A DNA stretch of 64,000 nucleotides from Candidatus Aminicenantes bacterium (GCA_963807525.1 CAWECI010000025.1:95056-159055); one strand, 5' to 3'; positions 8,977-25,727 are shown, counted from the stretch's first letter. Notes: generated from the sequence alone by a model not told the origin. Translations and numbers: made by a program.

Positions 8977-9019
8977 AGGATGCCGATATTAACAGGCTTT
9001 ATAAGAACTCAAATGTCAT

Positions 9020-9292
9020 CTATCGACCTTTTTTATCATCCGGAGCCTCGGGCCCAATAAGCTCGGTGGCTTTTCCTTGGCTTAAACTTTTGGGATCCTC
9101 CGCTCCCTTGGCTATTTTCTGATCTCGGTTTCCGCTTCCTTCGATGCCCTTTTCTGTCGGCTCGCGCTTCTTCGATTCCAGACGCTTCTTTGTCGTTAGC
9201 TTCGCGGTCTTCTGCCATTTTGCCTCTCTCGCGATCTCCGCCTTTCCCCTCGCCACCCTGTATGCTGAGGCCGTTAAGCTTATTTTTGCCAT
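9020..9292 (-). CDS. Small Lys/Arg/Glu-rich hypothetical protein (90 aa)
   Basis: Strong SD TAAGGAGG about 10 nt before the ATG; no recognisable domain. Confidence 0.55.
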   Translation of the reverse strand: MAKISLTASAYRVARGKAEIAREAKWQKTAKLTTKKRLESKKREPTEKGIEGSGNRDQKIAKGAEDPKSLSQGKATELIGPEAPDDKKGR

Positions 9293-9724
9293 GATGCTGA
9301 AACCTCCTTACTGTTCTTGCCAGAATTGCCCATTCATCATCCAAGCCACTCAAGAAGGGCGCGAACACTCCCGGTGGCCAGGGCGATGCTCGAATCCGCC
9401 CCCAGTTCCGGTCCCTTGGCCAATAAGCGAAGAGAGGCAATCCCTCCGAAATTACCGCCTTTGCCGTGGACAGACCAGACCGGGGCCGAGTGTTTCGTGG
9501 TTGGAAGTTGAGCCACTCGGGATTACACAGACAACTCAGTATATCACAATCCTACGGTCGGCATCAGAGCCGCGCGTGCGCCCCGCCTTGCGGGTGCCTT
9601 CAAACTCGTTTGATAAAAGGGGAGTATCAGCGGCGCCGCAGGTGAGCACAATCTGAGCACAGGCGATTGGGCGCACCACCAAAATACATTTATTATAAGC
9701 AGGTTGAGAAGCTAGGCCAGTTGG

Positions 9725-9769
9725 TTCGTAATCAGCAGGTCGGAGGTTCGATCCCTCTCGCTGGCTCCA
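9725..9769 (+). repeat. attR: duplicated 3' 45 nt of tRNA-Thr
   Basis: ttcgtaatcagcaggtcggaggttcgatccctctcgctggctcca, identical to 7641-7685. Confidence 0.92.
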
Positions 9770-9804
9770 GCCATGCTTCCCCAACGGCAGTGGCGTTCCT
9801 CACG

Positions 9805-9833
9805 TTGACTTCCCTCCCGGGCGGCGTTATCCT
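9805..9833 (+). promoter_or_regulatory. Sigma70 promoter of the kinase gene
   Basis: TTGACT-N17-TATCCT. Confidence 0.55.
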
Positions 9834-9860
9834 TGCGCCAAGCCGGAAAGTCATCGGGCC

Positions 9861-12335
9861 ATGAAATGCCCCCAGTGTCACGCCGATAATCCCGATACGT
9901 CCCGGTTCTGCGGCAGCTGCGCCGCGCTCCTAGGCCAGGATAGCACGCCCATCGACTCCTTGACGAAAACTATTCAAATTCCTGCCCATGCGCTTTCAAA
10001 GGGCACCCTCATCGCCGGGAAGTACCGGATCGTCGACGAGATCGGCCGGGGCGGAATGGGGATCGTCTACAAGGCCGAAGACATCGTCCTTCAGCGCACC
10101 GTCGCCCTCAAATTCCTCCCGGCGCAGTGGACGGCCGATCCCGAAGCGAGAGAGCGGTTCGTCCACGAGGCTCGGGCTGCGTCGGCCCTCGACCACTCCA
10201 ACATCTGCAACATTCATGAGATCGGAGAGGCCGCAGACGATCGGATGTACATCGCCATGGCCTTCTATGAAGGGAAGAGCCTGAGGGAAAAGATCAAGCA
10301 AGGTCTCCTGAAGCAGGAGGAAGCCCTGGACATCGCCGTCCAGGCGGCCACGGGCCTGGCCAAAGCCCACCAGAAAGGCATTGTCCACCGCGACATCAAG
10401 CCGGCCAACATGATCATCACGTCCGACGGTGTGGTGAAGATCTTAGACTTCGGCCTGGCCAAGCTCGCCGGCCAGATCAAGCTGACCCGCGAGGGAACGA
10501 CCGTGGGCACGGTCGCCTACATGTCTCCGGAGCAGGCGAAAGGCGAAGCCGTCGACCAGCGCACCGACATCTGGTCGCTGGGAGTTGTCCTCTACGAGAT
10601 GCTCTCGGGGATCCTCCCGTTTAAAGGGGATTACGAGCGGACGTTGATCCATTCGATCCTTAACCAGGAGCCGGAACGCCTGGGCGGGCGCCGGAAAGAC
10701 CTCCCTGCGGGCCTGGAGAATATCGTCTTCAAGGCCTTGTCCAAGGATCCCATTGACCGATACCAGAGCATGGACGAGCTGGTCGAGGACCTCCAATCGG
10801 TCGTGGCGGGCTTGCAGCCGGTCCGGGCCTCCTCCATGTTCCTCCGCGGCCGGTTCCTGGGGCTCAAGAAGGTCTTCGCCTACCCGGCGATGGCGGGAAT
10901 ATCGATTCTGGCCATCGTCGCGTGGCTTCTCATCTTCCCCAAACGCGGCCAGGCCTTCGATTCGATCGCCGTCCTGCCCATCGAAAACCTCACGGGTGAC
11001 CCCGGCCAGGAATACTTCGTCGACGGCGCCACCGATGAGCTGATCGGGCAGCTGGCCCAGATCGGCTCCTTGCGCGTGATCTCCCGCACGTCGGTCATGA
11101 AATACAAGGCGCTGAAGATACCCGTGCCGGAGATCGCCCGCGAGCTTAACGTGAAGGCCGTCGTCGAGGGGACCGTGCATCGGGTCGGCGACAGAGTGCG
11201 GATCCGGGTGGAGCTGATCAAGGCCCTGCCCGAAGAGCGAAACATCTGGAACCAGACCTACGACCGGGCCATGGCCGACGTGCTTGTCATGTATAGCGAA
11301 ATGGCGCGAACGATCGCAGGCAAGATGCAGGTCAAGCTGGCCCCGCAGGAAGAAACGCGTCTGGCGGCCGTCCACCAGGTCAATCCCGAGGCCTACCAGG
11401 CCTATCTCCAAGGCCAGTTTCACTGGTACAAGCTCACCCGACCGGACCTCGACAGCGCGCTTCAGTATTTCGAATTGGCCTTGGCCAAGGACCCCGGCTA
11501 CGCCCAAGCCTATGCGGGAATTGCCAGCGTTTGGATCGGGCGCCAGCAACAGGGCTTTGTTCCAACCCGCGAATCGGCGCCGAAAGCGAAGGCGGCCGCC
11601 GCAAAGGCCCTGGAGCTCGACAGCATGCTCGCGGAAGTTCATGAAACTCTGGCGGGCATCAGAACATGGACAGATTGGGATTGGGAAGGCGGGGAGGCGG
11701 AGTACCGTCGGGCGATTGAACTCAATCCCAACCTCCCGGGGCCACGCGCCAGTATCTCGCATTTATTGAACATCCTGAAGCGCCCCGAGGAGGCGATGAC
11801 GCAAATCCAGCGGGCCCTCGAATTGGATCCTCTCAATGCGTTGTTCCGGGGTCATTACGCCATGGACCTGATGTACGCGCACCGGTATGACGACGTCATC
11901 GCCGTGATCCGCGAAACGCTCAAAACCTCGCCGAACGACCCCATCGCGTTGTCAACTCTCCGGTCCGCCTACCACATGAAACGCATGTACCCTGAAGCGA
12001 TTGAAGCGTGGAAAGCGTCGTATGCCGCGAGGGGGGATGAAGCGGCTGAGGAGGCCCTGGCGCGCGGCTTCAAAGAAGGCGGTTACCCGAGAGCTTTGCA
12101 GCGTGTGGCCGAGACACTGGCGGCGCGGGCGCGGACAGCCTATGTGCCGGCCTGGCAGATCGGCACGCTCTATACCCGGGCCGGGATGAAGGATGAAGCC
12201 CTCGACTGGCTGGAGAAGGCTTATCAAGCTCATGATCCCAACATGCCTTATATCAGCGTGGATCCCATATTTGACGACATCCGGGACGATCCGCGCTTCA
12301 GGGATCTTCTGCGCCGGATGAACCTGGAATACTGA
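9861..12335 (+). CDS. Hanks-type Ser/Thr protein kinase: N-terminal zinc ribbon, TM, TolB-N-like domain, TPR repeats
   Basis: CPQC..CGSC; GRGGMGIVYKA, VALKFL, HRDIKPAN, DFGLAK, GTVAYMSPEQ; TM AMAGISILAIVAWLLIF; SIAVLPIENLTGD; TPR-like helices. Confidence 0.94.
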   Translation: MKCPQCHADNPDTSRFCGSCAALLGQDSTPIDSLTKTIQIPAHALSKGTLIAGKYRIVDEIGRGGMGIVYKAEDIVLQRTVALKFLPAQWTADPEARERFVHEARAASALDHSNICNIHEIGEAADDRMYIAMAFYEGKSLREKIKQGLLKQEEALDIAVQAATGLAKAHQKGIVHRDIKPANMIITSDGVVKILDFGLAKLAGQIKLTREGTTVGTVAYMSPEQAKGEAVDQRTDIWSLGVVLYEMLSGILPFKGDYERTLIHSILNQEPERLGGRRKDLPAGLENIVFKALSKDPIDRYQSMDELVEDLQSVVAGLQPVRASSMFLRGRFLGLKKVFAYPAMAGISILAIVAWLLIFPKRGQAFDSIAVLPIENLTGDPGQEYFVDGATDELIGQLAQIGSLRVISRTSVMKYKALKIPVPEIARELNVKAVVEGTVHRVGDRVRIRVELIKALPEERNIWNQTYDRAMADVLVMYSEMARTIAGKMQVKLAPQEETRLAAVHQVNPEAYQAYLQGQFHWYKLTRPDLDSALQYFELALAKDPGYAQAYAGIASVWIGRQQQGFVPTRESAPKAKAAAAKALELDSMLAEVHETLAGIRTWTDWDWEGGEAEYRRAIELNPNLPGPRASISHLLNILKRPEEAMTQIQRALELDPLNALFRGHYAMDLMYAHRYDDVIAVIRETLKTSPNDPIALSTLRSAYHMKRMYPEAIEAWKASYAARGDEAAEEALARGFKEGGYPRALQRVAETLAARARTAYVPAWQIGTLYTRAGMKDEALDWLEKAYQAHDPNMPYISVDPIFDDIRDDPRFRDLLRRMNLEY

Positions 12336-12424
12336 CCTCCATGGAAACTCCAGGAATTCTTCTTAAAAACCCCAATTCGGCTATAATAGTTAAAAGACAT
12401 CGCAAATTTTCGAGGGAGGAAATC

Positions 12425-13009
12425 ATGAAGCGTTTTGGCCTGGCCATCGGTGTTATCCTGGTCCTGGCTCTCGTCTTAGCTCTGCCTTCCCCATCATCCG
12501 CCCAGGGGCCTAAAGTGGCGGCAAGCCTCAAAGCTAGCGTGATGCAAAGGTTGGGAACGGATTGCGATATCACCATCGATTACAGCCGGCCCGGGGTCAA
12601 GGGCCGGAAGATCTGGGGCGGCCTGGTCCCATACGGCATGACCCCTGGAAATCAATATTCCAAGAACAAGCCCTTTCCCTGGAGGGCCGGCGCCAACGAG
12701 AACACGACCATTGAATTCAAGAAGGACGTCCTCGTCGAGGGGAAGCCTCTTCCGGCCGGGAAGTACGGCCTCCATATGATCCCCGGCGAAAAGGAATGGA
12801 CGATCATCTTCAGCAAGAAGAACGCCGACTGGGGAAGCTTCGCCTACGACCAGGCCGAGGATGCCCTCCGCGTCACGGTCACTCCCGTCATAGCCCCCCA
12901 CCAGGAGTGGTTGATGTTCGGGTTCGATGATCTGGCCGGGACATCGGCGACCGCCTACCTCCACTGGGAACAGCTGAAAGTCCCCTTCAAGATCCAGGTC
13001 GCGAAATAG
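12425..13009 (+). CDS. DUF2911 domain exported protein
   Basis: SD GGAGG before ATG 12425; signal peptide; ASVMQRLG, IDYSRPGVKGRKIWGGLVPYG, WRAGANENT, AGKYGLHMIP. Confidence 0.85.
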   Translation: MKRFGLAIGVILVLALVLALPSPSSAQGPKVAASLKASVMQRLGTDCDITIDYSRPGVKGRKIWGGLVPYGMTPGNQYSKNKPFPWRAGANENTTIEFKKDVLVEGKPLPAGKYGLHMIPGEKEWTIIFSKKNADWGSFAYDQAEDALRVTVTPVIAPHQEWLMFGFDDLAGTSATAYLHWEQLKVPFKIQVAK

Positions 13010-13063
13010 CTGCAGCAGGGTCTCCCGGAACGGCTTAACTGGGGCGCGCACGCGTTGCGGCCG

Positions 13064-15574
13064 ATGAACGGGACTATCCTCAAGAAGCTCATCACCATGG
13101 CCGTGGGATTGGCCCTGTTTCCCAGCATTCACGGGCTGGCCCAGCCGGCCGGGATCGTCGGTTCCGCCGATCTCGAGATCGCGCTTCACAAGCTCGACGT
13201 CCTCGGCAGCGTCCTCTACGTGGCCGCCCACCCGGACGATGAAAACACGGCCGTCCTGTCTTATTTCTCGAAGGGGCTAAAATTCCGGACGGCCTACCTG
13301 TCCCTTACGCGCGGCGAAGGCGGCCAGAATCTGATCGGCCCCGAGCAGGGCGCCGAGATCGGCATCATCCGGACCCAGGAGCTCCTGTCGGCCCGCCGGA
13401 TCGACGGAGCCGAACAGTACTTCACGCGCGCCGTCGATTTCGGCTATTCCAAAACGGCCGAGGAGACATTCGAGTTTTGGGGAAAAGAAAGAGTCCTGTC
13501 GGACATCGTCTGGGTGATCCGGAAGTTCCGGCCGGACGTGATCATCACCCGCTTTACCCCGGACAACGCCGGCGGCCATGGCCACCACCGGGCGTCCGCG
13601 ATCCTGGCCCAAGAGGCCTTCGCCGCCGCCGCTGACCCGGCGAGATTCCCGGAACAACTGAAGTATGTGTCGCCATGGAAGGCCAGGCGGCTGTTCTGGA
13701 ACGGTTTTCCCCAGGCCAAGGACGAAACCCGGAACATGTTGCGGCTCGACACGGGCGAATACAATCCGCTGCTGGGGAAATCCTATAACGAGATGGCCGC
13801 GGAGGGCCGTTCCCAACATAAGAGCCAGGGATTCGGCTCGGCCGCGCGACGCGGCACCCAGTACGAATATTTCGATCTCCTGGCCGGGGAGCCGGCGAAG
13901 AACGGCCTTTTCGAGGGGATCGACGTCACTTGGGACCGCGTCCCTGGCGGACACAAGGTGGGTGTCCTCCTCGCCGAAACCTCGAAGTCGTTCGATCCGG
14001 AGCGTCCATCAAAGTCCATCCCCGGCCTGCTGGCTGTCTATGGAGAATTGGCCAAGCTCCCCGACGAGAATTGGGTCCGTCTCAAGAAAGAGGAATTGGC
14101 CCGCGTCATCCAGGCCTGTGGCGGGATCTGGATGGAGGCCATGGCCGGTGATTTCGCCGCAGCGCCGGGGGACGAGATCCATGTCAAAACGACGATCATC
14201 AACCGGTCCGACAAGCCCTTCGCCATCCACAGCCTGAGCTTCCCGAAACTGGGGCCGGAGACGATCCTCGACCGGACCCTCAATGACAACGAGCCCGCGG
14301 TCATCGAAGACACCCTCAGGATCCCCAGGGATTTTCCGCTGTCTCAGCCCTATTGGCTGGACGCCGCTCATCAGGAGGGTCTCTTTTCGGTCGGAGACCA
14401 GAATCTCATCGGACTCGCTGAAAACCCGCCTGCCATCGTCGCCAAGATCACGCTCACCGCCGACGGCCATCTCCTGGAATATTCCCTCCCCCTGGCCTTC
14501 CGCTGGACGGACCAGGTCAACGGCGAGCTCCTGCGGCCCTTCGAGGTCCGGCCGCGCCTGACGATCAAGATCGACGATAAGGTCCAGATCTTCGCCGGCC
14601 TTAGTTCCAAGAGGATCAAGCTCCGGCTGAAGAGTCAATCCCCGAACGTGGCCGGTGAAATCCGGCTCAAGGGGCCGGACCGGTGGAAAGTCAGCCCGGC
14701 CAGCCTGTCTTTTTCACTGGCCGGCAAATATGAAGAGTGCGAGGTCGCGTTTGACGTGACCCCGCCGAAGGCCGCCGACGAGAGCGACCTCGTGGCGGAA
14801 GCCGAGGTCGGAGGCGAGACGATCAGCCGGGAGCTGGTCGAGATCTCCTACCCTCACATTCGCCGCCAGGTCTATTTCCCAGAGAGCCGGTTCAAGGTCG
14901 TCAAGCTGGACATCAAAACGGACGGGAAGAGGATCGGCTACATCATGGGGGCGGGGGACGAGATCCCCAACGCCCTTCGAAATCTCGGCTATGACGTCCT
15001 CGAGCTCGGCGACGACATGGTCGAAAACGCGGACCTCTCTCCCTTTGACGCCATCATCGCCGGGGTCAGGGCCTATAACACGCGGGACGTCCTCAAGCTC
15101 GCGAATGAGAGGCTTCTCCAGTACGTCGAGCGCGGCGGGACGCTCGTCGTCCAGTATAACGTGGCCTCCGGCTCGCTGGCCGACCGCATCGGCCCTTATC
15201 CCTTCACGATCGGGAGGGACCGGGTGAGCGTCGAAACCGCGCCGGTCGTCTTTCTGGCTCCCGATCATCCGCTCCTCAACCTTCCCAACAAGATCACGCC
15301 CGCGGATTTCGAGGGCTGGATCCAGGAGCGGGGCCTGAATTTCGCCTCCCAGTGGGACGAACGATATGAGACAGTCCTCGCCTGCCACGATCCCGACGAG
15401 CCCGACAAGAAGGGCGGCCTGCTCTACACCCACTACGGGAAAGGGATCTTCATCTACACCGGCTATGCCTGGTTCCGGCAGCTGCCGGCCGGCGTGCCGG
15501 GCGCGTATCGGCTTTTCGCCAACATCATTTCGGCGGGGAAAACCACTGGAAAACCACCCGACGGAAAGAACTGA
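13064..15574 (+). CDS. Exported PIG-L/LmbE-family deacetylase, multidomain (Ig-like middle, C-terminal GATase-like domain)
   Basis: Signal-like N-terminus; AAHPDDEN, LTRGEGGQN, RTQELLSARRIDG, GHGHH; C-terminal YIMGAGD..LVVQYN..YTGYAWFRQLPAGVPGAYRLFAN. Alternative TTG start at 13055. Confidence 0.88.
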   Translation: MNGTILKKLITMAVGLALFPSIHGLAQPAGIVGSADLEIALHKLDVLGSVLYVAAHPDDENTAVLSYFSKGLKFRTAYLSLTRGEGGQNLIGPEQGAEIGIIRTQELLSARRIDGAEQYFTRAVDFGYSKTAEETFEFWGKERVLSDIVWVIRKFRPDVIITRFTPDNAGGHGHHRASAILAQEAFAAAADPARFPEQLKYVSPWKARRLFWNGFPQAKDETRNMLRLDTGEYNPLLGKSYNEMAAEGRSQHKSQGFGSAARRGTQYEYFDLLAGEPAKNGLFEGIDVTWDRVPGGHKVGVLLAETSKSFDPERPSKSIPGLLAVYGELAKLPDENWVRLKKEELARVIQACGGIWMEAMAGDFAAAPGDEIHVKTTIINRSDKPFAIHSLSFPKLGPETILDRTLNDNEPAVIEDTLRIPRDFPLSQPYWLDAAHQEGLFSVGDQNLIGLAENPPAIVAKITLTADGHLLEYSLPLAFRWTDQVNGELLRPFEVRPRLTIKIDDKVQIFAGLSSKRIKLRLKSQSPNVAGEIRLKGPDRWKVSPASLSFSLAGKYEECEVAFDVTPPKAADESDLVAEAEVGGETISRELVEISYPHIRRQVYFPESRFKVVKLDIKTDGKRIGYIMGAGDEIPNALRNLGYDVLELGDDMVENADLSPFDAIIAGVRAYNTRDVLKLANERLLQYVERGGTLVVQYNVASGSLADRIGPYPFTIGRDRVSVETAPVVFLAPDHPLLNLPNKITPADFEGWIQERGLNFASQWDERYETVLACHDPDEPDKKGGLLYTHYGKGIFIYTGYAWFRQLPAGVPGAYRLFANIISAGKTTGKPPDGKN

Positions 15575-15692
15575 GGGCGAGCGGGAGCGGCCTCCTTTCT
15601 TCTCGTCGTGGGGACGCCTGTACGCAGCCGTCCTGTTGAATCTGGCCCTCCAGATCCTTCTCTTCTATATTTTCACCAAGGCATTCAGGTAG
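15546..15692 (+). CDS. Small single-TM protein (48 aa), symporter small-subunit-like; CTG start
   Basis: (M)ENHPTERTEGERERPPFFSSWGRLYAAVLLNLALQILLFYIFTKAFR; overlaps the deacetylase stop and abuts the bshC ATG. Confidence 0.6.
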   Translation: MENHPTERTEGERERPPFFSSWGRLYAAVLLNLALQILLFYIFTKAFR

Positions 15693-17309
<1,617 letters not shown>

Positions 17310-17336
17310 AGGATCCTGTCCGAAAAGGAGACGGCT

Positions 17337-18074
17337 ATGGATTTGGACGCTCTGGCGTTTGGGGCCCACGCTGATGACGTGGAACTCGGCTGCGGCGGCA
17401 CGCTGGTCAAACTGTCGGGACTGGGCCACAGCACGGGCGTTGTTGTGCTGACCCGGGGGGAGATGGCGACGCAGGGCAGTGCCGAGATCCGGGGCCGGGA
17501 GTTCACGAACGCCGCGACGATCCTGGGCCTGAAGGTCCATCGGATGTTGGACATCCCCGACGGGCGGGTCGAGGTGACGTGGGAGAACAAGCTCAAGATC
17601 ATCGGCGTTCTGCGCGCCCATAAGCCGAAAATCGTTTTCGCGCCCTATTGGGTCGACCGTCACCCGGACCACGAGCAGGCCTCGCATCTTGTGCGCCAGG
17701 CGGCCTACCTCTCGGGATTGAGGAAGATCGAAACGGATGAGCCGCCCTTCCGGCCCTATAAGATCATCTATTATCAGACTCGGTTTGAGTTCACCCCCTC
17801 CTTTATTGTCGATATCTCCGGCGTGCACGACGTGAAGATGAGGGCCGTCCGGGCCTATGGATCCCAATTCCACCGTCCCGGCCAGGCCGAACCCGGGAGC
17901 GACGGAACGCTCATCGGCCGGCCCGAATTCCTGGACTCCATCGAGATCCGGGCCAGGCACTACGGCGCCCAGATCGGCGCCAAGTTCGGCGAGCCCTTTC
18001 TGGTCAGGGAGGCCATCGGAGTGGAGGACCCCGTCGGATTCTTCGGACCCGAGTACCTATGGACGATCCCATGA
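17337..18074 (+). CDS. bshB1: Bacillithiol biosynthesis deacetylase
   Basis: LAFGAHADDVELGCGGT, TRGEMATQG, DRHPDH, AVRAYGSQF, RARHYG..AEPF; lies between bshC and bshA. Confidence 0.9.
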   Translation: MDLDALAFGAHADDVELGCGGTLVKLSGLGHSTGVVVLTRGEMATQGSAEIRGREFTNAATILGLKVHRMLDIPDGRVEVTWENKLKIIGVLRAHKPKIVFAPYWVDRHPDHEQASHLVRQAAYLSGLRKIETDEPPFRPYKIIYYQTRFEFTPSFIVDISGVHDVKMRAVRAYGSQFHRPGQAEPGSDGTLIGRPEFLDSIEIRARHYGAQIGAKFGEPFLVREAIGVEDPVGFFGPEYLWTIP

Positions 18075-19204
18075 GGTCCGCCATGAAGATCGGGATCGTC
18101 TGCTATCCGACGCACGGCGGGAGCGGGGTCGTGGCCTCGGAGCTGGCCATCGGCCTGGCCAAGAAGGGCCACGAGATCCATATCATCAGCTATGCCACGC
18201 CGTTCCGACTGCGCACGTTTTACCGGAATATTTTCGTCCACGAGATCGAGGTTACGACATATCCGCTGTTCAAGTATCCGCCGTACGAATTGAGCCTGGT
18301 CACCAAGCTGGTCGAGATCGCGGAGACGCGCGGCCTCGACATCATCCACGCCCATTACGCCGTGCCTCATGCCGCCAGCGCCTACCTGGCCAGGCAGATC
18401 CTCAATTCTGAGTGCTTGAAGACCATCACGACCCTCCACGGCACGGACATCACCCTCGTCGGCGCCGACCCGTCCTTTGCCCGGGTGGTCAAGTTCGCCA
18501 TCGATCAATCCGACGGCGTCACGGCCGTTTCCCGCTACCTCATGCAGCGCACGGTCGAGGAATTCGACATCCGCCGCGAGATCCGGGTCATCCCCAACTT
18601 TGTCGAGATCGCCAGGCCGGCGCAGAATCGCGACCTGTGCTCACGGGAGACGCTGGCGCCGAAGGGGGAGAAGATCCTGATGCACGCGTCCAATTTCCGT
18701 CCTGTGAAACGGATCGCGGACGTTGTCCGCATCTTCGCCAGGGTCCGCGAGCGCGTCCCGGCCAAGCTCATCCTGATCGGCGACGGGCCGGAGCGGCTGT
18801 TCATCCAGCAGCTCGTTCGGGAGCTGAAGCTCAACGCCGACGTCCAGTTCATGGGTGAACAGGACCAGCTCGAGGCCCTCTTTCTCTGTGCCGATCTGTT
18901 CCTCCTGCCGAGCGAGCAGGAAAGCTTCGGCCTCACCGCCCTCGAGGCCATGAACTGCGGCGTCCCGGTGATCGGCACCGCGATCGGGGGCCTGCCCGAG
19001 GTCATCATGCACGGGGAGACAGGGTACCTGTTCCCCGTCGGCGACATCGCGGAGATGGCGGCGAGTGCCGTGGCCCTTCTCGGCGACCCGGCGAGGCACG
19101 CCCTTTTCAGGGCGCAGGCCCGGAAGCGGGCCGAGCAATTCTTTGACGCCGACCGGATCATTCCGCTTTATGAAGCCTTTTATGAAGAAATCCTGAGATC
19201 CTAG
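18071..19204 (+). CDS. bshA: N-acetyl-alpha-D-glucosaminyl L-malate synthase
   Basis: KIGIVCYPTHGGSGVVASELA, HAHYAVPHA, TTLHGTDITLVG, SNFRPVKR, ESFGLTALEAM; alternative start 18083. Confidence 0.93.
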   Translation: MRSAMKIGIVCYPTHGGSGVVASELAIGLAKKGHEIHIISYATPFRLRTFYRNIFVHEIEVTTYPLFKYPPYELSLVTKLVEIAETRGLDIIHAHYAVPHAASAYLARQILNSECLKTITTLHGTDITLVGADPSFARVVKFAIDQSDGVTAVSRYLMQRTVEEFDIRREIRVIPNFVEIARPAQNRDLCSRETLAPKGEKILMHASNFRPVKRIADVVRIFARVRERVPAKLILIGDGPERLFIQQLVRELKLNADVQFMGEQDQLEALFLCADLFLLPSEQESFGLTALEAMNCGVPVIGTAIGGLPEVIMHGETGYLFPVGDIAEMAASAVALLGDPARHALFRAQARKRAEQFFDADRIIPLYEAFYEEILRS

Positions 19205-19207
19205 CGT

Positions 19208-20925
19208 ATGCATTCCCTGGACTGGATCGTCCTGACGTCATTCCTCCTGTTCGTAGCCGCCTACGGAGTCTGGAAGACCCGAGGGAAAAAGGACATGCCG
19301 GGCTATTTCCTGGCCAACAAATCGACTCCCTGGTACGGCGTCACCGTTTCCATCATGGCCACCCAGGCCAGCGCCATAACCTTCCTTTCCATGCCCGGCC
19401 AGGCCTACGTCGATGGCATGCGGTTCGTCCAGTTCTATTTCGGCTTGCCCATTGCCATGGTCATCCTCTCGATCACGGCCGTTCCGCTGTTCCATAAGCT
19501 CAAGGTGTACACGGCGTATGAATTCCTGGAGCAGAGGTTTGACCTGAAGAACCGGGCCCTGGGGAGCCTCCTCTTCCTCATCCAGCGGGGGCTCGCGGCC
19601 GGATTCACGATCCTGGCCCCGGCCCTGATCATCTCCGTTATCCTCGGCTGGGATTTCCGCCTGACGATCTTCATGATCGGGGGCCTGGTCGTCCTCTATA
19701 CGGCCGCGGGGGGACTGAGGCCGTCAATAAGACGCATCTTCTGCAGATGGCCATCGTGACGGTGGGCATGGGCGCGGCGTTCTTCATGATCTTCCGCCGG
19801 CTGCCGCCCGACATTTCATTTTCGAGCGCCGTCCATCTGGCCGGAAAGCTGGGCAAGCTGAATGTCGTCAATTTCACCTTCAACTGGGCGGACCGATACA
19901 ATTTTTGGTCGGGCCTCATCGGCGGGGCCTTCGTAGCCCTGTCATACTTCGGGACGGATCAATCTCAGGTCCAGCGCTACCTGGCCGGACGGTCCGTCGC
20001 CCAAAGCCGCATGGGGCTCCTCGCCAACGGCGTGGTCAAGGTCCCCATGCAGTTCGTCATCCTCTTCATCGGCGCCATGATCTTCGTTTTTTACCAGTTT
20101 GTGACGCCGCCGCTGTTCTTCAACCCAGTCGAAACGGCCCATGTCAAGAACGGGGCCTACGCGGCAGCCTATACGAAGCTCGAGGCGGACTATCGAGGCC
20201 TGAGCGGGGAGAAGCAGGACCAACTCCGGCGGATGCTGACGGCCATCGATAACCACAATAAAGGGGACGAGGCCGAGGCCATGGAGAAGCTCCGGCTGGT
20301 AAAAGAATCGGAATCCGGCCTCCGGCGGGACGCCATCGACCTCGTCAAGAAGAACGATCCCCTGGCCGAGACGAACGATACGAACTACATTTTCCTGAGC
20401 TTCGTGACCCGCTATCTCCCGGTCGGACTGGTCGGACTGATCCTGGCCGCTATCCTCTCGGCGTCGATGTCGGCGTCCTCCGCCGAGCTCAGCGCCCTGG
20501 CTTCCGTCACCGTGATCGACATCTACAAGCGTCTTATAAGGCGCAACGCCCCAGACCGGCACTATGTCCGCGCGTCGAAGGCGGCCACGGTTTTTTGGGG
20601 GCTCTATGCCATCGCGTTCGCCCAATTCGCGAACCACCTCGGCTCCTTGATCGAAGCCGTGAACATCATGGGGTCCCTGTTTTACGGGACGATCCTCGGG
20701 ATATTCCTCATCGCCTTCTATTTCAAGAGGATCGGCGGCAACGCGACCTTCGTGGCCGCGGTCATCGCCGAATTCACCGTGCTGGCCTGTTTCTTCTTTA
20801 CGAAGATCCCTTATCTCTGGTTCAACGTCATCGGCTGTGCCCTTCTCGTGATCCTGGCCAACATCATGAATCCTATTTGGCCGGGCAGGAGGACGGGATC
20901 GCCCGCACCGGCCTGTTCCGCCTGA
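19208..20925 (+). pseudogene. Sodium:solute symporter, split by a 1-nt deletion in a G6 run (19708-19713); may be a sequencing artefact
   Basis: ORF 19208-19759 (MATQASAITF, GMRFVQFYFG) and ORF to 20925 (YFGTDQSQVQRYL) join as YTAAGGTEAVNKTHLLQM if one G is added. Confidence 0.85.
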
Positions 20926-21022
20926 CTCTCCCGTCTTCCTGAGACGGGATTTCGGCTTCATTAAGCGCCGAAGGCACAATGTTAGGGGGCCGGCAATAAC
21001 GCGGGTCCTGCTCTCTCTTTCA

Positions 21023-21052
21023 TTGACTTCTTCCCTCCGAAGGCTCTAGAAT
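21023..21052 (+). promoter_or_regulatory. Sigma70 promoter, near-leaderless
   Basis: TTGACT-N18-TAGAAT, ATG 10 nt downstream. Confidence 0.55.
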
Positions 21053-21062
21053 CGCATCGCTG

Positions 21063-23468
21063 ATGGAAAAAGGGGACCAACTCGATTCCTGGAAAGAGAT
21101 CTCTGCCTACCTCAAACGCAATATCAGAACCTGCCAGAACTGGGAGCGAGAGCTCGGTCTTCCCGTCCATCGACTCGACGGTTCGCCCAGGGCCAGGGTT
21201 TTCGCCTACACCGGCGAGCTGGACGCCTGGCGAAACGATAAGTGTCTCGAACGGGGCGACCTGCAGGCGAAAGTGAAAACCCGGCGGCTGTTCATGGTCG
21301 CCTTCGCTCTGCTCGGCATCGTCGTCCTCGGCGCCGTCGTCTTGAGATATCTCTTCCGCGGGAGCGCAGGGGGCCCTACGGCGCTCGAGAACTCCGTCGC
21401 CATCATCAGCTTCGAGAACCAGACGGGTGACGCAGCGCTCGATATCTATCGCAAGATGATCCCCAGCCTCCTGATCACGAGCCTGGAACAAACGCAGAGC
21501 TTCTATGTGATGAGCTCCGAGCGCCTCGAGGATATCCTGAAGCAGATCGGCAAGGACGGCGCGGAGTTTATCGACGACGAGATCGGGTTCGAGGCCTGCC
21601 GCAAGGTCGGAGTGAAGGCGCTGGTCACTGGCAGTTTTTTCAAGGCCGGCGGCACATTCATGACGGACGTGAAAGTCCTTGATGTCAGGACCAAGCGGCT
21701 CCTCGGGACGGCCAAGGCCCAGGGGGCGGGGCCGGAGAGCCTTTTCCTGAATCAGGTCGATGATCTGAGCCGCCAGATCTCGACGAGCCTGGGTATTGCC
21801 AAAGACAGGCTCGACGCCAGCCTGAGGTCAGTCGAGGGCTTCGGCACGAAGTCGGCGGAGGCCTACAAGTATTACCTGCTGGGGTCAAGGGACCTCGATA
21901 ATCACCTCTACGCTCGGGCCCGCGAATCCTTGGAGAAGGCCGTCCGGATCGATCCGGATTTCGCTGACGCCTTTGGGCAACTGGCGAGCGCATATTATGG
22001 AGACGGCGACGAGCCGGCCTCCTTCCTGGCCATCGAAAGGGCACATGCCCTTTCCAAGAATGCCCCGGAAAAGGAAAGGCTTCAAATCGAAGCCAGCTAC
22101 GCCCAAGCCATTGAAACAGACAGCGAGAAAGAGCTAGCCATCGTCCAGGAGTTCGCGGCGAAGTTTCCCAAGGAGAAGTCGGCCCATATCTGGCTGGGCT
22201 GGTTGTACGAGACGTCGGACCCGACGAAAGCTATGGCCGAGTATCAGATCGCGCTCGATCTCGACCCCAATTCGACAGCAAGCCTGAACGCTCTCGGGTT
22301 GATGTACGTGGAACGGAAAGAATTCGACAAAGGCCTGGAACTCCTGCGAAGGGAAACGGCCGTCGCGCCGGAGAATCGCAACGCTTGGGATTCCCTGGCC
22401 CAGGCCTATTTCCGGGCCGGGAAGGTCGCCGAGGCAAAAGCCGGGTTCTTGCAGCTGCTTGAGAAATGGCCGGATACGAACTGGTCCGTTTCGGTCCTCC
22501 AGTATATCTATGCGCTCGAAGAGGATTATGGGGGAGCCCTGAGACAGTGGGACGGGCTCCTCGGGGTCTGTACGCCTCAGCAAAGGCCGCTGATCTATTG
22601 GTGGAAGGGATTCTACGGGTGTTGGCTTGGCGACTCGGTAGGTTGTCTGAGCGACCTCAAGCGGGCCGCGGAGATGCTCGAGGCGATGGGGAGAAAAGGC
22701 GAGGTGGCCGAGATCATGCGGCTCCGCGTCTGGCTATATCTCGATCGGCATGAGTACGATCTGAGCCGGAAGTCTCTCGCGGACTATCGGGCTTTTTGCT
22801 CAAGGGAAATGCCGCAATATACGGCCTATTCTGATGCTCTGTATGACGAAGCGCTCGGGCATATCGAATGCGGATCGGGAGATGCGGACCGGGCGGAGCA
22901 GTGCTTGGAGGATATGGAGGCGCTCATCCCCAAGGTCAAGGCCTTGGTCCCCCGGAACCCTCTCGTCCAGGCAGGAACGAGCATGATCGACGACAACGCT
23001 CAAAGAGCCCTGGAATACGGGGCGAAGCGGCTTCGAACCGAGGTGGAACTGGCTCATGGGCGCATCGATGAGGCCGTCGGAAGCCTGGAGAGGACGCCGC
23101 CCCGGCCGCTGCCGACGTTCATCGGCACGAGCATCTTCCTTTATCTGATGTCCTACAATATTCCCTTCCTTAATGATGCCCGCGCCAGAGCCTATGCGGC
23201 CAGGGGCGATCTGGACAAGGCTATCGCCGAATACGAGCGGCTGACCACGTTCGACCCGAAGAACGAGGCCCAATTCCTCATCCATCCGAAATACCATTAC
23301 CGGCTGGGCTTGCTCTACGAACAGAAGGGCCAGAAGGCCAAGGCCGCCGAGCGCTACCGGAAGTTCCTTGACCTCTGGAAAGACGCCGATCCCAGCCTGC
23401 CCGAGGTGGAGGATGCAAGGAAGAGGCTGGCCTTGCTGCCCTCGAAGCCGGCTGCAAGTTGTCCATGA
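21063..23468 (+). CDS. Membrane-anchored TPR protein with N-terminal HTH-like DNA-binding domain and TolB-N-like domain
   Basis: LDSWKEISAYLKRNIRTCQNWERELGLPVHR; TM LFMVAFALLGIVVLGAVVL; VAIISFENQTGD; many TPRs; YRKFLDLWKDADP. Confidence 0.8.
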   Translation: MEKGDQLDSWKEISAYLKRNIRTCQNWERELGLPVHRLDGSPRARVFAYTGELDAWRNDKCLERGDLQAKVKTRRLFMVAFALLGIVVLGAVVLRYLFRGSAGGPTALENSVAIISFENQTGDAALDIYRKMIPSLLITSLEQTQSFYVMSSERLEDILKQIGKDGAEFIDDEIGFEACRKVGVKALVTGSFFKAGGTFMTDVKVLDVRTKRLLGTAKAQGAGPESLFLNQVDDLSRQISTSLGIAKDRLDASLRSVEGFGTKSAEAYKYYLLGSRDLDNHLYARARESLEKAVRIDPDFADAFGQLASAYYGDGDEPASFLAIERAHALSKNAPEKERLQIEASYAQAIETDSEKELAIVQEFAAKFPKEKSAHIWLGWLYETSDPTKAMAEYQIALDLDPNSTASLNALGLMYVERKEFDKGLELLRRETAVAPENRNAWDSLAQAYFRAGKVAEAKAGFLQLLEKWPDTNWSVSVLQYIYALEEDYGGALRQWDGLLGVCTPQQRPLIYWWKGFYGCWLGDSVGCLSDLKRAAEMLEAMGRKGEVAEIMRLRVWLYLDRHEYDLSRKSLADYRAFCSREMPQYTAYSDALYDEALGHIECGSGDADRAEQCLEDMEALIPKVKALVPRNPLVQAGTSMIDDNAQRALEYGAKRLRTEVELAHGRIDEAVGSLERTPPRPLPTFIGTSIFLYLMSYNIPFLNDARARAYAARGDLDKAIAEYERLTTFDPKNEAQFLIHPKYHYRLGLLYEQKGQKAKAAERYRKFLDLWKDADPSLPEVEDARKRLALLPSKPAASCP

Positions 23469-23546
23469 AAGCGCTCGTGATCTGGGGACGAGGGGCCTGC
23501 CGCCTCTTAGTAGAATGGCCTGGGCGAGGTCGAGATGCGAGGGCCA

Positions 23547-23705
23547 ATGTCTAAACGGAAGACCGTGATCGGCATTGGAATTGTCCTGGTCCTCGTGATC
23601 TCGATATGGATGAGCATCGCCTCGAACCCGATCAGCGGGATCGCGGTTTTCTTTGTCCTGACAGGCCTGCTGTGGGCGCTGGCCAAGACCAGGCACTGGA
23701 TCTAG
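23547..23705 (+). CDS. Small two-TM hypothetical protein (52 aa), below the ORF-track cutoff
   Basis: GAGGG SD; MSKRKTVIGIGIVLVLVISIWMSIASNPISGIAVFFVLTGLLWALAKTRHWI. Confidence 0.55.
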   Translation: MSKRKTVIGIGIVLVLVISIWMSIASNPISGIAVFFVLTGLLWALAKTRHWI

Positions 23706-23795
23706 GGCGCGCTCGCCGCATCGATCCCGCGGGATATTGAGTCGTCCCTGCCCAGGTGCTACATTGTGGCAGGGAGCACCCGGAAGGAGATCTCC

Positions 23796-25727
23796 ATGGG
23801 GAAGCAGAAAGCGGCTCTGGCATTAAGCCTTGTCTTGGTCGTCGCGATCGCGGCTTCGGGACAAACCAAGCCCCGGGCCCGCGACTTGGGCATCCCCTTC
23901 GACGGCACGCCGGGCGCCTATAACGCCATCACCGACGTCGCGGGCGTCGAGGTCGGGATGACCACGCTCATCTCCGGCAAAGGACCTCTCGTCGTCGGCC
24001 AAGGACCGGTGCGGACGGGCGTGACCGCCGTCATCCCTCGCGGAAAAGGAAGGCTGAACCAGGTCTTCGCGGCCTGGTTCACGCTCAACGGCAACGGCGA
24101 GATGACGGGCACGACCTGGCTCGACGAATCGGGCTTTCTGGAGGGCCCCGTTCTGATCACGAACACCCACAGCGTCGGCGTCGTCCACGACGCGGTCATC
24201 GCCTGGCAGCTGGCGCGGATGGGGGACAGGTTCCCGACCTGGTCCCTGCCTGTCGTCGCCGAAACCTGGGACGGGGACCTCAATGATATCAACGGCTTCC
24301 ACGTTAAACCGGAACACGTCTATCAGGCCCTCGACGGCGCCAAGTCCGGGCCGGTGGCCGAAGGGAACGTCGGCGGCGGCACGGGCATGATCGTCCACCG
24401 CTTCAAGGGCGGCACCGGCACGTCCTCGCGAAAGGTCATGATCGGCCGGGCCTCCTATACGGTCGGCGTCCTCGTCCAGGCGAACTACGGCGGCAGGGAC
24501 CAGTTGACGATCGCCGGCGTCCCCGTCGGCAAGGAGATCCCGGACCTCATGCCGCATGGCGGGGAAGGAGACGCCGGGTCGATCATCGTCGTCATCGCCA
24601 CCGACGCGCCGCTCCTGCCCCACCAGCTCAAGCGCATAGCCGAGAGGGCCTCCCTCGGGATCGGCCGGACCGGCGGCATCGGCAGCAACAGCTCGGGCGA
24701 CATCTTCATCGCCTTTTCGACGGCCAACCCGGGCGCGGCGGGAAGCTCCGATCCGGTCAAGGTCGATATGCTGCCCAACGACTGGATCAATCCCCTGTTC
24801 ACCGCGACCGTCCAGGCCACCGAGGAAGCCATCGTCAATGCCATGGTCGCCGCGGAAACGATGGAGGGCATCAACGGCCGCGTCGTTTACGCCATTCCAC
24901 ACGATCGCTTGAGGGCCATTCTCAAGAAATACGGACGCCTCGTCGAGCCGGGGACGAAGGAGCCGCTGCCTGCCCAGGCCCCCGGGTCCGTGTTCCTGGA
25001 GAACCTGACCTGGGTCCAGGCGGAAAAAGCGCTCAAGGAACATGATGTCGTCCTCTTCGCGCTCGGCGCCCGCTCGAAAGAACACGGCCCCCATCTGCCG
25101 CTCAAGAACGACTATGTCCTCGCCGAATACCTGATGAAGCGCGTCGCGGACGAGGTCCCCGTCGCCGTCCTGCCGACGGTGCCCTACGGATATTACCCCG
25201 CCTTCCTCGAGTATCCGGGCTCAGTCTCGATCGGGGCCGAGACCTTCAAGAACTTCGTCATGGATATCTGCAAGTCCATGCACGGCTACGGGCGCGACAA
25301 GTTTTACTGTCTCAACACCGGCGTCTCGACGATCGGGCCGCTGGCCGAAGCGTCGAAAGAGCTGGCCGCCCTAGGCATCTTCCTCCGCTCCCTCAACGTC
25401 CTCGAGGCGGACGGCGCGCTGCCCGCCGGGCTCCTGAAACAGGAGGGCGGCACTCATGCCGACGAGAACGAGACCTCGATGATGCTCTATATCGCGCCCG
25501 AGATCGTGGACATGTCCAAGGCGGTCAAGGATTACGACCCCCGGCCCGGCCGTCATGGCCTCACTCGCGATCTCCAGGGGAAGGGCACATACAGCGCGAC
25601 CGGCATCTATGGCGACCCAACCCTGGCTAACCCGGAAAAGGGGAAGGTCATCGTCGAGGCGACGGTCCGCGAGATCGTCCGCCAGGTCCGTGACCTGATG
25701 GCCCTCAAGGCGAGCGGTATAAGATAA
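23796..25727 (+). CDS. Fusion: exported P1/DmpA (S58) aminopeptidase + creatininase-family amidohydrolase
   Basis: SD AAGGAG; signal peptide; NAITDVAGVEVG, NGNGEMTG, EGNVGGGTGM, VQANYG, G|SIIVVIATDAP; then ENLTW, EHGPHLP..D, HADENETS. Confidence 0.88.
   Translation: MGKQKAALALSLVLVVAIAASGQTKPRARDLGIPFDGTPGAYNAITDVAGVEVGMTTLISGKGPLVVGQGPVRTGVTAVIPRGKGRLNQVFAAWFTLNGNGEMTGTTWLDESGFLEGPVLITNTHSVGVVHDAVIAWQLARMGDRFPTWSLPVVAETWDGDLNDINGFHVKPEHVYQALDGAKSGPVAEGNVGGGTGMIVHRFKGGTGTSSRKVMIGRASYTVGVLVQANYGGRDQLTIAGVPVGKEIPDLMPHGGEGDAGSIIVVIATDAPLLPHQLKRIAERASLGIGRTGGIGSNSSGDIFIAFSTANPGAAGSSDPVKVDMLPNDWINPLFTATVQATEEAIVNAMVAAETMEGINGRVVYAIPHDRLRAILKKYGRLVEPGTKEPLPAQAPGSVFLENLTWVQAEKALKEHDVVLFALGARSKEHGPHLPLKNDYVLAEYLMKRVADEVPVAVLPTVPYGYYPAFLEYPGSVSIGAETFKNFVMDICKSMHGYGRDKFYCLNTGVSTIGPLAEASKELAALGIFLRSLNVLEADGALPAGLLKQEGGTHADENETSMMLYIAPEIVDMSKAVKDYDPRPGRHGLTRDLQGKGTYSATGIYGDPTLANPEKGKVIVEATVREIVRQVRDLMALKASGIR

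Follow-up and report, generated by a model that had tools for sequence, protein, structure and literature searches.

The analysed window, a 64,000-nucleotide stretch from the genome of an uncultured Candidatus Aminicenantes bacterium, carries the bacillithiol (BSH) genes bshC, bshB1, and bshA inside a gene module for an exported hydrolase and a Na+/solute symporter. Comparative genomics suggests that this module acts outside the cytoplasm to recover or process bacillithiol-type compounds. To the more specific reading, extracytoplasmic hydrolysis and Na+-coupled re-uptake of a putative bacillithiol-related GlcN(Ac)-malate compound, we assign a probability of about 0.5. To our knowledge, BSH biology has been worked out almost solely in Firmicutes, which have no periplasm. 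In Acidobacteria, Bacteroidetes, and Chlorobi the bacillithiol pathway is predicted, and it has been proposed that no other low-molecular-weight thiol of bacteria is as widespread as bacillithiol (PMC6282198). Neither the module nor BSH uptake or salvage was found described in the literature.

Organization of the locus

The genes are arranged on the + strand in the order DUF2911, exported PIG-L hydrolase, 48-aa membrane peptide, bshC, bshB1, bshA, and SSS symporter.

12341–13009, + strand, DUF2911 protein (PF11138, 162 bits; gathering score 27)
13064 (ATG, 836 aa) or 13055 (TTG, 839 aa) to 15574, + strand, large PIG-L/LmbE-type zinc hydrolase (PF02585)
15546–15692, + strand, 48-aa single-TM peptide, presumed small subunit of the symporter
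15693–17309, + strand, bshC, bacillithiol cysteine-adding enzyme (TIGR03998, 493.5 bits; cut-off 265.8)
17337–18074, + strand, bshB1, GlcNAc-malate deacetylase (TIGR04001, 256.4 bits; cut-off 182.5)
18059–19204, + strand, bshA, GlcNAc-malate synthase, GT4 (TIGR03999, 537.2 bits; cut-off 273.7)
19208–20925, + strand, SSS-family Na+/solute symporter in two ORFs (PF00474, TIGR00813)
19708–19713, + strand, G6 run, one base short by comparison with six relatives

ORF calls and HMM scores confirm the ORFs and family assignments of the original prediction (PIG-L, TM protein, bshC, bshB1, bshA, and SSS). Its tight operon stands as regards the compact order and is corrected in three respects: the peptide ORF has no ATG, GTG, or TTG start, the symporter is in two ORFs, and the DUF2911 gene is added upstream. 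Along the 12341–20925 string, neighboring genes are spaced by between −29 and +54 nt. The small ORF shares 29 nt with the hydrolase gene, the bshC ATG comes immediately after the TAG stop of the small ORF, bshB1 follows bshC after 27 nt and overlaps bshA by 16 nt, and the symporter begins 3 nt behind bshA, for which ATG 18083 may be an alternative start to 18059. The only promoter-like sites lie at 9805 and 21023, and about as many would be expected after shuffling. Judged by this layout, the string from DUF2911 to the symporter is very probably a single operon. At least 14 Aminicenantes species, with 60–89% identity, share this gene order, and the arrangement is therefore not due to chance.

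The bacillithiol genes

All three Bsh proteins exceed the NCBI equivalog cut-offs. BshC carries both Pfam domains (PF10079, 344 bits; PF24850, 104 bits), and BshA is clearly separated from other GT4 families, the next-best of which scores 125 bits. BshB1 has no signal peptide, and its translation contains intact GAHADDVE and RHPDHEQ motifs (zinc-binding/catalytic AHxDD and HxDH). Profiles for Bdr/YpdA (TIGR04018) and YtxJ/BrxC (TIGR04019), which detect their targets in the positive controls Bacillus, Thermus, and Deinococcus, gave no match in this genome or in 40 Aminicenantales relatives. BSH in the Aminicenantales is thus predicted to lack its usual cytoplasmic partners.

Since carriers without Bdr and YtxJ may not use BSH as a cytoplasmic redox buffer, this absence also favors an outward BSH function instead of salvage. 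Exported BSH or a derivative would then be a shuttle that binds metal, acts as a reductant, or carries sulfur; the hydrolase would unload or process it, and the symporter would return the carrier part. The unit is a self-contained accessory block, as such a role would suggest, and low-molecular-weight thiols have been proposed as periplasm–cytoplasm sulfur shuttles in Chlorobiaceae (PMC6282198). We nevertheless consider this explanation quite unlikely: the unit contains no exporter gene, genes of metal or sulfur metabolism are not linked to it, and the module coexists with ordinary BSH systems in Bacteroidota. An example of the latter is locus L021, where a BrxC gene lies 35 nt downstream of the hydrolase gene; this juxtaposition agrees with the salvage reading but, found at only one of about 100 loci, is an anecdote.

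The exported hydrolase

The hydrolase matches PF02585 with 60 bits (gathering score 28.2). It is composed of a signal peptide, the PIG-L domain, a helical linker, beta-sandwich domains, and a ThuA-like C-terminal domain; its N-terminus is signal-peptide-like, and signal-like N-termini are present across the homologs as well. In the H59-P-D-D-E63 motif, H59, P60, D61, and D62 are invariant among 30 homologs, as is H178. The AF2 model has a pLDDT of 88 and a pTM of 0.86, and no solved structure of the full-length protein was found. In Foldseek searches, the N-domain matches Dac, BC1534, and BshB (6ull), whereas the hits of the C-domain are ThuA-like proteins and the GH42 trimerisation domain. 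Because no Cys or His is invariant in the C-terminal domain, a catalytic GATase triad was rejected for it. An apparent BshA–hydrolase fusion ORF at locus L094 was also discarded; over its first ~390 residues it reads through bshA in the wrong frame, giving an Arg/Pro-rich sequence.

The only curated relatives of the hydrolase are four thiol-pathway PIG-L enzymes, among which Mca is the best in all nine homologs tested. All scores stay below the equivalog cut-offs, with 38–52 bits for Mca (cut-off 277; 52 bits for the hydrolase of this window) and at most 35.6 bits for the others (182–224). The structural matches are also consistent with a generic amino-sugar scavenger, a reading that we regard as rather unlikely. 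In such a system, the exported de-N-acetylase would act on chitin, peptidoglycan, or other GlcNAc glycosides, the symporter would import the GlcN-type product, and the bsh genes would be nearby through a common GlcNAc/GlcN pool or operon shuffling. Diacetylchitobiose deacetylases are among the best Foldseek matches of the N-domain, and the middle and C-terminal domains resemble accessory domains of carbohydrate enzymes (GH42 trimerisation, GLMA_2nd, NPCBM_assoc), but no glycoside hydrolase genes lie beside the module in the annotated loci.

The peptide and the symporter

The 48-aa reading of the peptide requires a CTG at 15546, which occupies the position homologous to the ATG, GTG, or TTG start in relatives and is preceded, 6 nt upstream, by an SD-like GGGGA. 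The motif PPxLxSW+xxYxxVxxxLxxLIxLFYxFT+xF is conserved across phyla. Searches with five orthologs gave no significant Pfam or NCBIfam family, known SSS small-subunit families included. Wherever the bsh genes are not inserted, the peptide stop and the SSS start overlap as ATGA. Small gene and symporter gene are thus normally neighbors, and bshCBA has been inserted between two partners. The small gene is missing from three Aminicenantes operons, which counts against the salvage reading.

The symporter is encoded here by ORFs 19208–19759 and 19747–20925, whereas all six relatives compared have one intact ORF. At the site of the G6 run, L002 and L016 have G7, and the others have GGGCGGG or GGGCGGC; the split in this assembly is thus attributed to one G missing at 19708–19713. 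Both halves are recognized by PF00474 (67 and 54.5 bits) and TIGR00813 (97 and 113 bits), with the frame broken between them. This frameshift, too, counts against salvage. The nearest solved relatives are SiaT (5nv9), SMCT1, SMVT, and NIS, all ahead of SGLT. Within the SSS family, the symporter accordingly belongs to the carboxylate/anion branch, closest to the sialic-acid carrier SiaT, and this proximity to carboxylate rather than sugar carriers argues against the amino-sugar scavenger.

Conservation of the module and its gene orders

Aminicenantes, other Acidobacteriota, Ignavibacteriota, and Bacteroidota share a conserved DUF2911/large PIG-L/peptide/SSS module, which about one-third to one-half of the sampled Bacteroidota and Acidobacteriota genomes contain. 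The outer genes are an ancient cross-phylum module. The DUF2911 protein has a signal-peptide-like N-terminus, and no solved relative of it was found. Of ~99 related loci, about a third have its gene close to that of the hydrolase, either upstream or downstream; the gene is part of the conserved unit, a recurrent fourth member of the module. The hydrolase gene has no adjacent symporter gene in many Cytophagales and Bryobacteraceae, a further point against salvage.

Splitting of the module by bshCBA (bigPIGL-small-bshCBA-SSS) is found only in Aminicenantales. Other Acidobacteriota families have bsh genes next to the module, in at least four further orders: DUF2911-bshCBA-bigPIGL-small-SSS (L083), bshA-bigPIGL-small-SSS-DUF2911 (L094 and L095), a bshC/bshA-bshB1 cluster 1.5 kb from the hydrolase (L086), and a convergent bshC adjoining SSS-bigPIGL (L081 and L082). 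Scavenging of amino sugars leaves these bsh–module arrangements, at least five in all, unexplained. It is favored by the many module loci without bsh genes within 8 kb and by locus L084, where genes for a ROK/NagC-like regulator and a TonB-dependent barrel immediately precede the module. Likewise, the regulator and the barrel precede the module in family f35, where mutL is positioned between the module and bshC, and the f35 locus looks like generic amino-sugar uptake. In f35, f23, and f47, bshC lies 5–8 kb away from the module, but this was downgraded as linkage evidence because mutL, the ROK regulator, and the TonB-dependent barrel lie between.

The gene orders also bear on whether any functional link exists. 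It is conceivable, but in our view very unlikely, that bshCBA entered a permissive operon of an Aminicenantes ancestor at random and was then passively inherited. The bshC-bshB1-bshA order does behave as a movable block, and physical linkage alone accounts for joint presence or absence within Aminicenantales. Chance insertion is nevertheless difficult to reconcile with the independent juxtapositions in other families, in different orders and orientations, with the ~0.5% chance of finding two given genes within 12 kb (an estimate for a 4.5-Mb genome), and with a phyletic pattern that is nested in two phyla. In a comparison with congeners without the operon, the S58-creatininase flank gene gave only partial matches of 47–49%, and these congeners thus offer no orthologous context for the empty site.

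Co-occurrence of the module and bsh genes

Of the 41 Aminicenantales genomes, 11 have both bshC and the hydrolase gene, 29 have neither, and in one more the locus is cut by a contig end; where present, the two genes are always adjacent. The whole unit is accessory in Aminicenantales, present or absent as a block, an all-or-none pattern that the amino-sugar scavenger does not explain. In the phylum sample (251 genomes), 117 genomes have both the hydrolase and BshC, 15 only the hydrolase, 27 only BshC, and 92 neither, the co-occurrence statistics being confounded by phylogeny. BshA is present in 12 of the 15 hydrolase-only genomes, 10 of which encode a shortened true BshC homolog (hhalign 99.5%). 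In other phyla, 49 of 50 module carriers have BshC. In Bacteroidota, the hydrolase is found in 0 of 11 BshA-negative and 90 of 240 BshA-positive genomes, a weak test since BshA is almost universal there; the other 150 BshA-positive genomes are without the module. Bacillus, too, has bsh genes and is not known to carry the module.

All sampled ortholog-level carriers have bshA, and a canonical or shortened BshC as well, save two with only a candidate short BshC-like ORF. At L094 and L095, a 260-aa ORF upstream of bshA contains collinear GQQ...DHD and SP...GxSE motifs (hhalign 33%, E 4.5e-4, two sequences only). The confinement of ortholog-level carriers to bshA-positive genomes is left unexplained by amino-sugar scavenging. 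Paralog-level hydrolase homologs in three genomes with neither BshA nor BshC count against BSH salvage. Independent occurrence of the PIG-L/SSS and bsh genes is therefore seen in one direction: bsh genes are often found without the module, but the module is almost never found without bsh genes. The shared pathway of the original prediction is supported in part, by the splitting of the partners by bshCBA, the further bsh–module gene orders, and the nesting of carriage in bshA-positive genomes.

Proposed extracytoplasmic bacillithiol cycle

In the proposed cycle, BSH, its disulfide, an S-conjugate, or the precursor GlcNAc-malate would reach the periplasm, either by the cell's own export or from other BSH-producing bacteria. 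The exported PIG-L enzyme would cleave an amide of the GlcN(Ac)-malate core, through deacetylation as by BshB or Cys-GlcN cleavage as by Bca/Mca, and DUF2911 may bind the substrate. The two-part Na+ symporter, formed by the large subunit and the peptide, would import the anionic sugar-acid product, most plausibly GlcN-malate, which would re-enter synthesis at BshC. The operon encodes no BSH exporter, which weighs against salvage.

A more far-reaching interpretation is tentative and somewhat doubtful. PIG-L, the micro-protein/SSS pair, and DUF2911 might constitute an undescribed periplasmic bacillithiol cycle of Gram-negative-type bacteria, with an extracytoplasmic BSH/BS-conjugate amidase (or GlcNAc-malate deacetylase) and a GlcN-malate importer feeding BshC. 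Aminicenantales-like lineages might then make BSH mainly for a non-cytoplasmic role rather than for redox buffering in the cytoplasm. The bsh-tied module is a concrete candidate for the export, use, and recovery of BSH in diderm producers. If true, a function would be assigned to four uncharacterised families, namely the ~840-aa PIG-L protein, the unannotated micro-protein, the SSS subfamily, and DUF2911. Carriers include the culturable Dyadobacter, Emticicia, Pedobacter, and Melioribacter, making genetics and enzymology feasible.

Comparison with known systems

The locus resembles the BshA/BshB1/BshC pathway of Bacillus subtilis and other Firmicutes in having all three enzymes, above equivalog cut-offs and with the BshB1 motifs intact. 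It differs in that a single bsh cassette is placed within a module encoding exported and membrane proteins, that the cassette is accessory within its Aminicenantes genus, and that Aminicenantales carriers lack the Bdr/YpdA and YtxJ/BrxC of the canonical bacillithiol redox system. The hydrolase has the same fold and zinc-binding motifs as Mca, Bca (BshB2), MshB, and BshB1. These enzymes are cytoplasmic and 220–300 aa long, whereas the hydrolase is ~840 aa long, possesses a signal peptide and additional beta-sandwich and ThuA-like domains, and scores far under their cut-offs. Archaeal Dac, a diacetylchitobiose deacetylase among its top structural matches, uses the PIG-L fold on a GlcNAc glycoside. 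However, Dac is a small cytoplasmic enzyme that acts together with GlmA, a partner without counterpart at this locus, and its sequence similarity to the hydrolase is marginal.

As in SSS transporters with a small subunit (e.g., VC_2705-type, TIGR03648/TIGR03647), translation of the SSS core is coupled to that of a single-TM micro-protein. The peptide is unlike any known SSS small-subunit family, and the symporter has an extra helical insertion of ~100 residues. Its closest solved relative, SiaT (PDB 5nv9), carries an N-acetylated sugar acid. Gram-negative bacteria turn over periplasmic glutathione through CydDC export, gamma-glutamyltranspeptidase, and peptide/GSH importers. The proposed scheme would be the BSH counterpart of this periplasmic gamma-glutamyl cycle, with a common logic in which the thiol exits the cytoplasm, an exported hydrolase cleaves it, and the fragments are re-imported; the analogy is one of function only, as the protein families are unrelated.

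Gene organization of the probable operon

Seven genes lie on the + strand between positions 12341 and 20925 of the window, including the bacillithiol (BSH) synthesis genes bshC, bshB1 and bshA.

Genes of the probable operon (position, strand, feature)
12341-13009, +, DUF2911 protein (PF11138, 162 bits)
13064 (ATG) or 13055 (TTG) to 15574, +, large PIG-L protein (hydrolase)
ending at 15692, +, small membrane ORF, with a 48-aa reading from CTG 15546
15693-17309, +, bshC (TIGR03998, 493.5 bits; cut-off 265.8)
17337-18074, +, bshB1 (TIGR04001, 256.4 bits; cut-off 182.5)
18059-19204, +, bshA (TIGR03999, 537.2 bits; cut-off 273.7)
19208-20925, +, SSS symporter, split into 19208-19759 and 19747-20925

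From DUF2911 to SSS, the junctions measure +54, -29, 0, +27, -16 and +3 nt. Only at 9805 and 21023 does the strand carry sigma-70-like sites, and such matches barely exceed shuffle expectation. The string from the PIG-L gene to the symporter is present as originally predicted, with all three Bsh proteins above their cut-offs, but the unit extends further upstream to include DUF2911.

The small ORF of the window contains no ATG, GTG or TTG start. The CTG at 15546-15548, preceded by an SD-like GGGGA 6 nt upstream, opens the 48-aa reading and appears to be the start codon; the predicted 48-aa transmembrane ORF requires this codon. About eight close species (loci L001-L006, L016 and the window) retain the CTG, which is found throughout the closest clade; in more distant relatives the homologous codon is ATG (L011, L013, L014 and L017), TTG (L018) or GTG (L019). 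The peptide motif PPxLxSW+xxYxxVxxxLxxLIxLFYxFT+xF is common to several phyla, and no family in Pfam or NCBIfam matches the peptide.

The symporter gene is in place, although as two ORFs rather than the one implied by the original prediction. The run at 19708-19713 has one G fewer than in six relatives, all of which encode SSS as a single ORF. An assembly error, a recent pseudogene and a phase-variable tract are possible explanations. In two long-read MAG loci (L004 and L009), bshC, bshA, SSS and the hydrolase gene carry several frameshifts each; assembly artefacts are thus a frequent cause of broken frames in these genes.

The operon is flanked by a Ser/Thr kinase that contains a zinc ribbon and TPR repeats (9861-12335) and, downstream, by an 801-aa TPR-rich protein (21063-23468). 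Kinase homologs are located upstream in L001, L002 and L013, downstream in L006, L007 and L009, and on both sides in L008. The G+C content of 8001-24000 is 0.54-0.62, versus 0.63-0.70 across most of the remaining window, and this block starts beside a tRNA-Thr islet. The low G+C, combined with patchy occurrence within the genus, hints that the operon sits on a variable island.

The outer genes in other bacteria

At least 587 relatives of the large PIG-L protein occur in one-genome-per-species contigs, and the best 80 of these belong to Aminicenantes and other Acidobacteriota, to Ignavibacteriota and to Bacteroidota. Most of the 80 have the order hydrolase-small gene-SSS, with the stop of the small gene overlapping the start codon of SSS (ATGA); DUF2911 frequently lies close by. 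Judged by this spread, the four outer genes (hydrolase, small gene, SSS and DUF2911) form an old module. Insertion of bshC-bshB1-bshA between the peptide gene and the symporter is found only in Aminicenantes (L001-L010, L012, L013, L015 and L016), so that the separation of these two genes noted in the original prediction is real, whereas elsewhere they overlap.

The peptide gene tracks the symporter, not the hydrolase. Among the loci examined it is found solely where a symporter is adjacent, and it stays upstream of SSS even when the order is small-SSS-hydrolase (L084). Three Aminicenantes operons (L010, L012 and L015) have lost it; there, bshC starts 10-28 nt past the hydrolase gene, and no micro-protein gene is present anywhere across the fetched 18 kb.

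In other Acidobacteriota families, bsh genes adjoin the module in several other arrangements. L083 has the order DUF2911-bshC-bshB1-bshA-hydrolase-small-SSS, and L094 and L095 have bshA-hydrolase-small-SSS-DUF2911. In L086, bshC is followed by an oppositely oriented bshA-bshB1 pair, at a distance of 1.5 kb from the hydrolase, and in L081 and L082 bshC lies next to SSS-hydrolase in convergent orientation. Three Acidobacteriota families (f35, f23 and f47) show looser linkages, over 5-8 kb, which were discounted because unrelated genes intervene. In a Bacteroidota MAG, the large PIG-L gene is followed after 35 nt, on the same strand, by a gene for a monothiol bacilliredoxin BrxC (L021:10555-10911; PF11009, 84 bits), the sole case among about 100 loci.

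In L084 (9732-14053, - strand), small-SSS-hydrolase is immediately preceded by genes for a ROK/NagC-like regulator and for a TonB-dependent outer-membrane barrel that carries a CarboxypepD_reg domain, a layout resembling a nutrient-uptake locus. These two genes leave room for a reading of the module as a generic amino-sugar scavenger, as do the carbohydrate-type accessory domains and the many loci that lack bsh genes or a symporter; we regard this reading as rather unlikely.

Co-occurrence with bacillithiol synthesis

Of 251 genomes sampled from the phylum, 117 contain hydrolase and BshC together, 15 hydrolase only, 27 BshC only and 92 neither. Ten of the 15 hydrolase-only genomes belong to family f36, all with BshA at 480-505 bits, and they encode a true, though shortened, homolog of BshC (hhalign 99.5%, E 4e-23). 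This protein (L107-L110, for example L107:1851-3020) is about 380-390 aa long, without the first ~85 residues, and scores 30-45 bits against TIGR03998 in two pieces, far under the cut-off; automatic annotation would probably miss it. In two more genomes, bshA immediately precedes the hydrolase and is itself preceded by a 260-aa ORF (L094:6946-7725, L095:1092-1901). No canonical BshC was found in either, and the ORF, which has the BshC motifs GQQ...DHD and SP...GxSE in collinear order and a weak profile match (33%), may be a compact BshC. The last three contain paralog-level matches only, without BshA or BshC.

In other phyla, 49 of 50 hydrolase carriers have BshC. BshA is almost universal in the Bacteroidota sample (240/251), where the hydrolase is found in 90 of 240 BshA-positive versus 0 of 11 BshA-negative genomes (Fisher p = 0.009, kinship ignored). 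Among the 41 closest genomes of the probably anaerobic Aminicenantales, the same 11 have hydrolase and BshC, the two genes always being adjacent; 29, many of them >90% complete, have neither, and in one further genome the contig ends 1 kb upstream of bshC.

The main signal is an asymmetry: in these samples the module is, at the ortholog level, confined to bshA genomes, whereas bshA is common without the module. The independence that would have spoken against the original prediction is thus seen in one direction only. The asymmetry, together with the repeated juxtaposition of bsh genes and module, argues for a functional tie. Pure chance, as an explanation of the association, is very improbable, being hard to square with the other gene orders and the co-occurrence counts.

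Neither Bdr/YpdA nor YtxJ/BrxC was found in the window's genome and 40 Aminicenantales relatives, including bshCBA carriers. Bacillithiol synthesis in these genomes thus comes without its usual cytoplasmic, disulfide-reducing partners. The absence of Bdr and YtxJ would suit an outward shuttle role for BSH, which we consider improbable.

Hydrolase, symporter and proposed role

An AlphaFold2 model of the hydrolase built with 30 homologs is confident (pLDDT 88, pTM 0.86), except for a low-confidence N-terminal helix that is signal-peptide-like in all homologs. The PIG-L domain, which matches Dac, BC1534 and BshB 6ull, is followed by a helical linker, beta-sandwich domains and a C-terminal ThuA-like/class-I glutamine-amidotransferase-like domain. 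Among homologs, HPDDE is invariant, as is a His downstream of it, and the C-terminal domain has no invariant Cys or His. The nearest solved relatives of the symporter are SiaT (a sialic-acid carrier), SMCT1, SMVT and NIS, all scoring ahead of SGLT, which places it on the carboxylate/anion side of the SSS family.

We propose that the hydrolase would cleave a GlcN(Ac)-malate-containing compound outside the cytoplasm and that the symporter would re-import the product, supplying BshC. This reading, to which we give roughly even odds (about 0.5), agrees with the hydrolase being exported, with its amidase/deacetylase fold and with the carboxylate type of the symporter.

Comparison with known systems

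Hiras et al. predict BSH in these phyla and do not mention the module (PMC6282198). Our literature search found no paper on the module or on any bacillithiol uptake or salvage system. What the window adds is an accessory, all-or-none Aminicenantales unit without Bdr or YtxJ, a quantified nesting of the module within bsh genomes in two phyla, and the assignment of the symporter to the anion branch. Mca, MshB, BshB2 and BshB1 are the only curated families matched by the hydrolase, Mca ranking first in 9/9 homologs at 38-52 bits. By these profiles the hydrolase resembles thiol-pathway enzymes, yet is a member of none, since its scores lie far under the cut-offs of all four.
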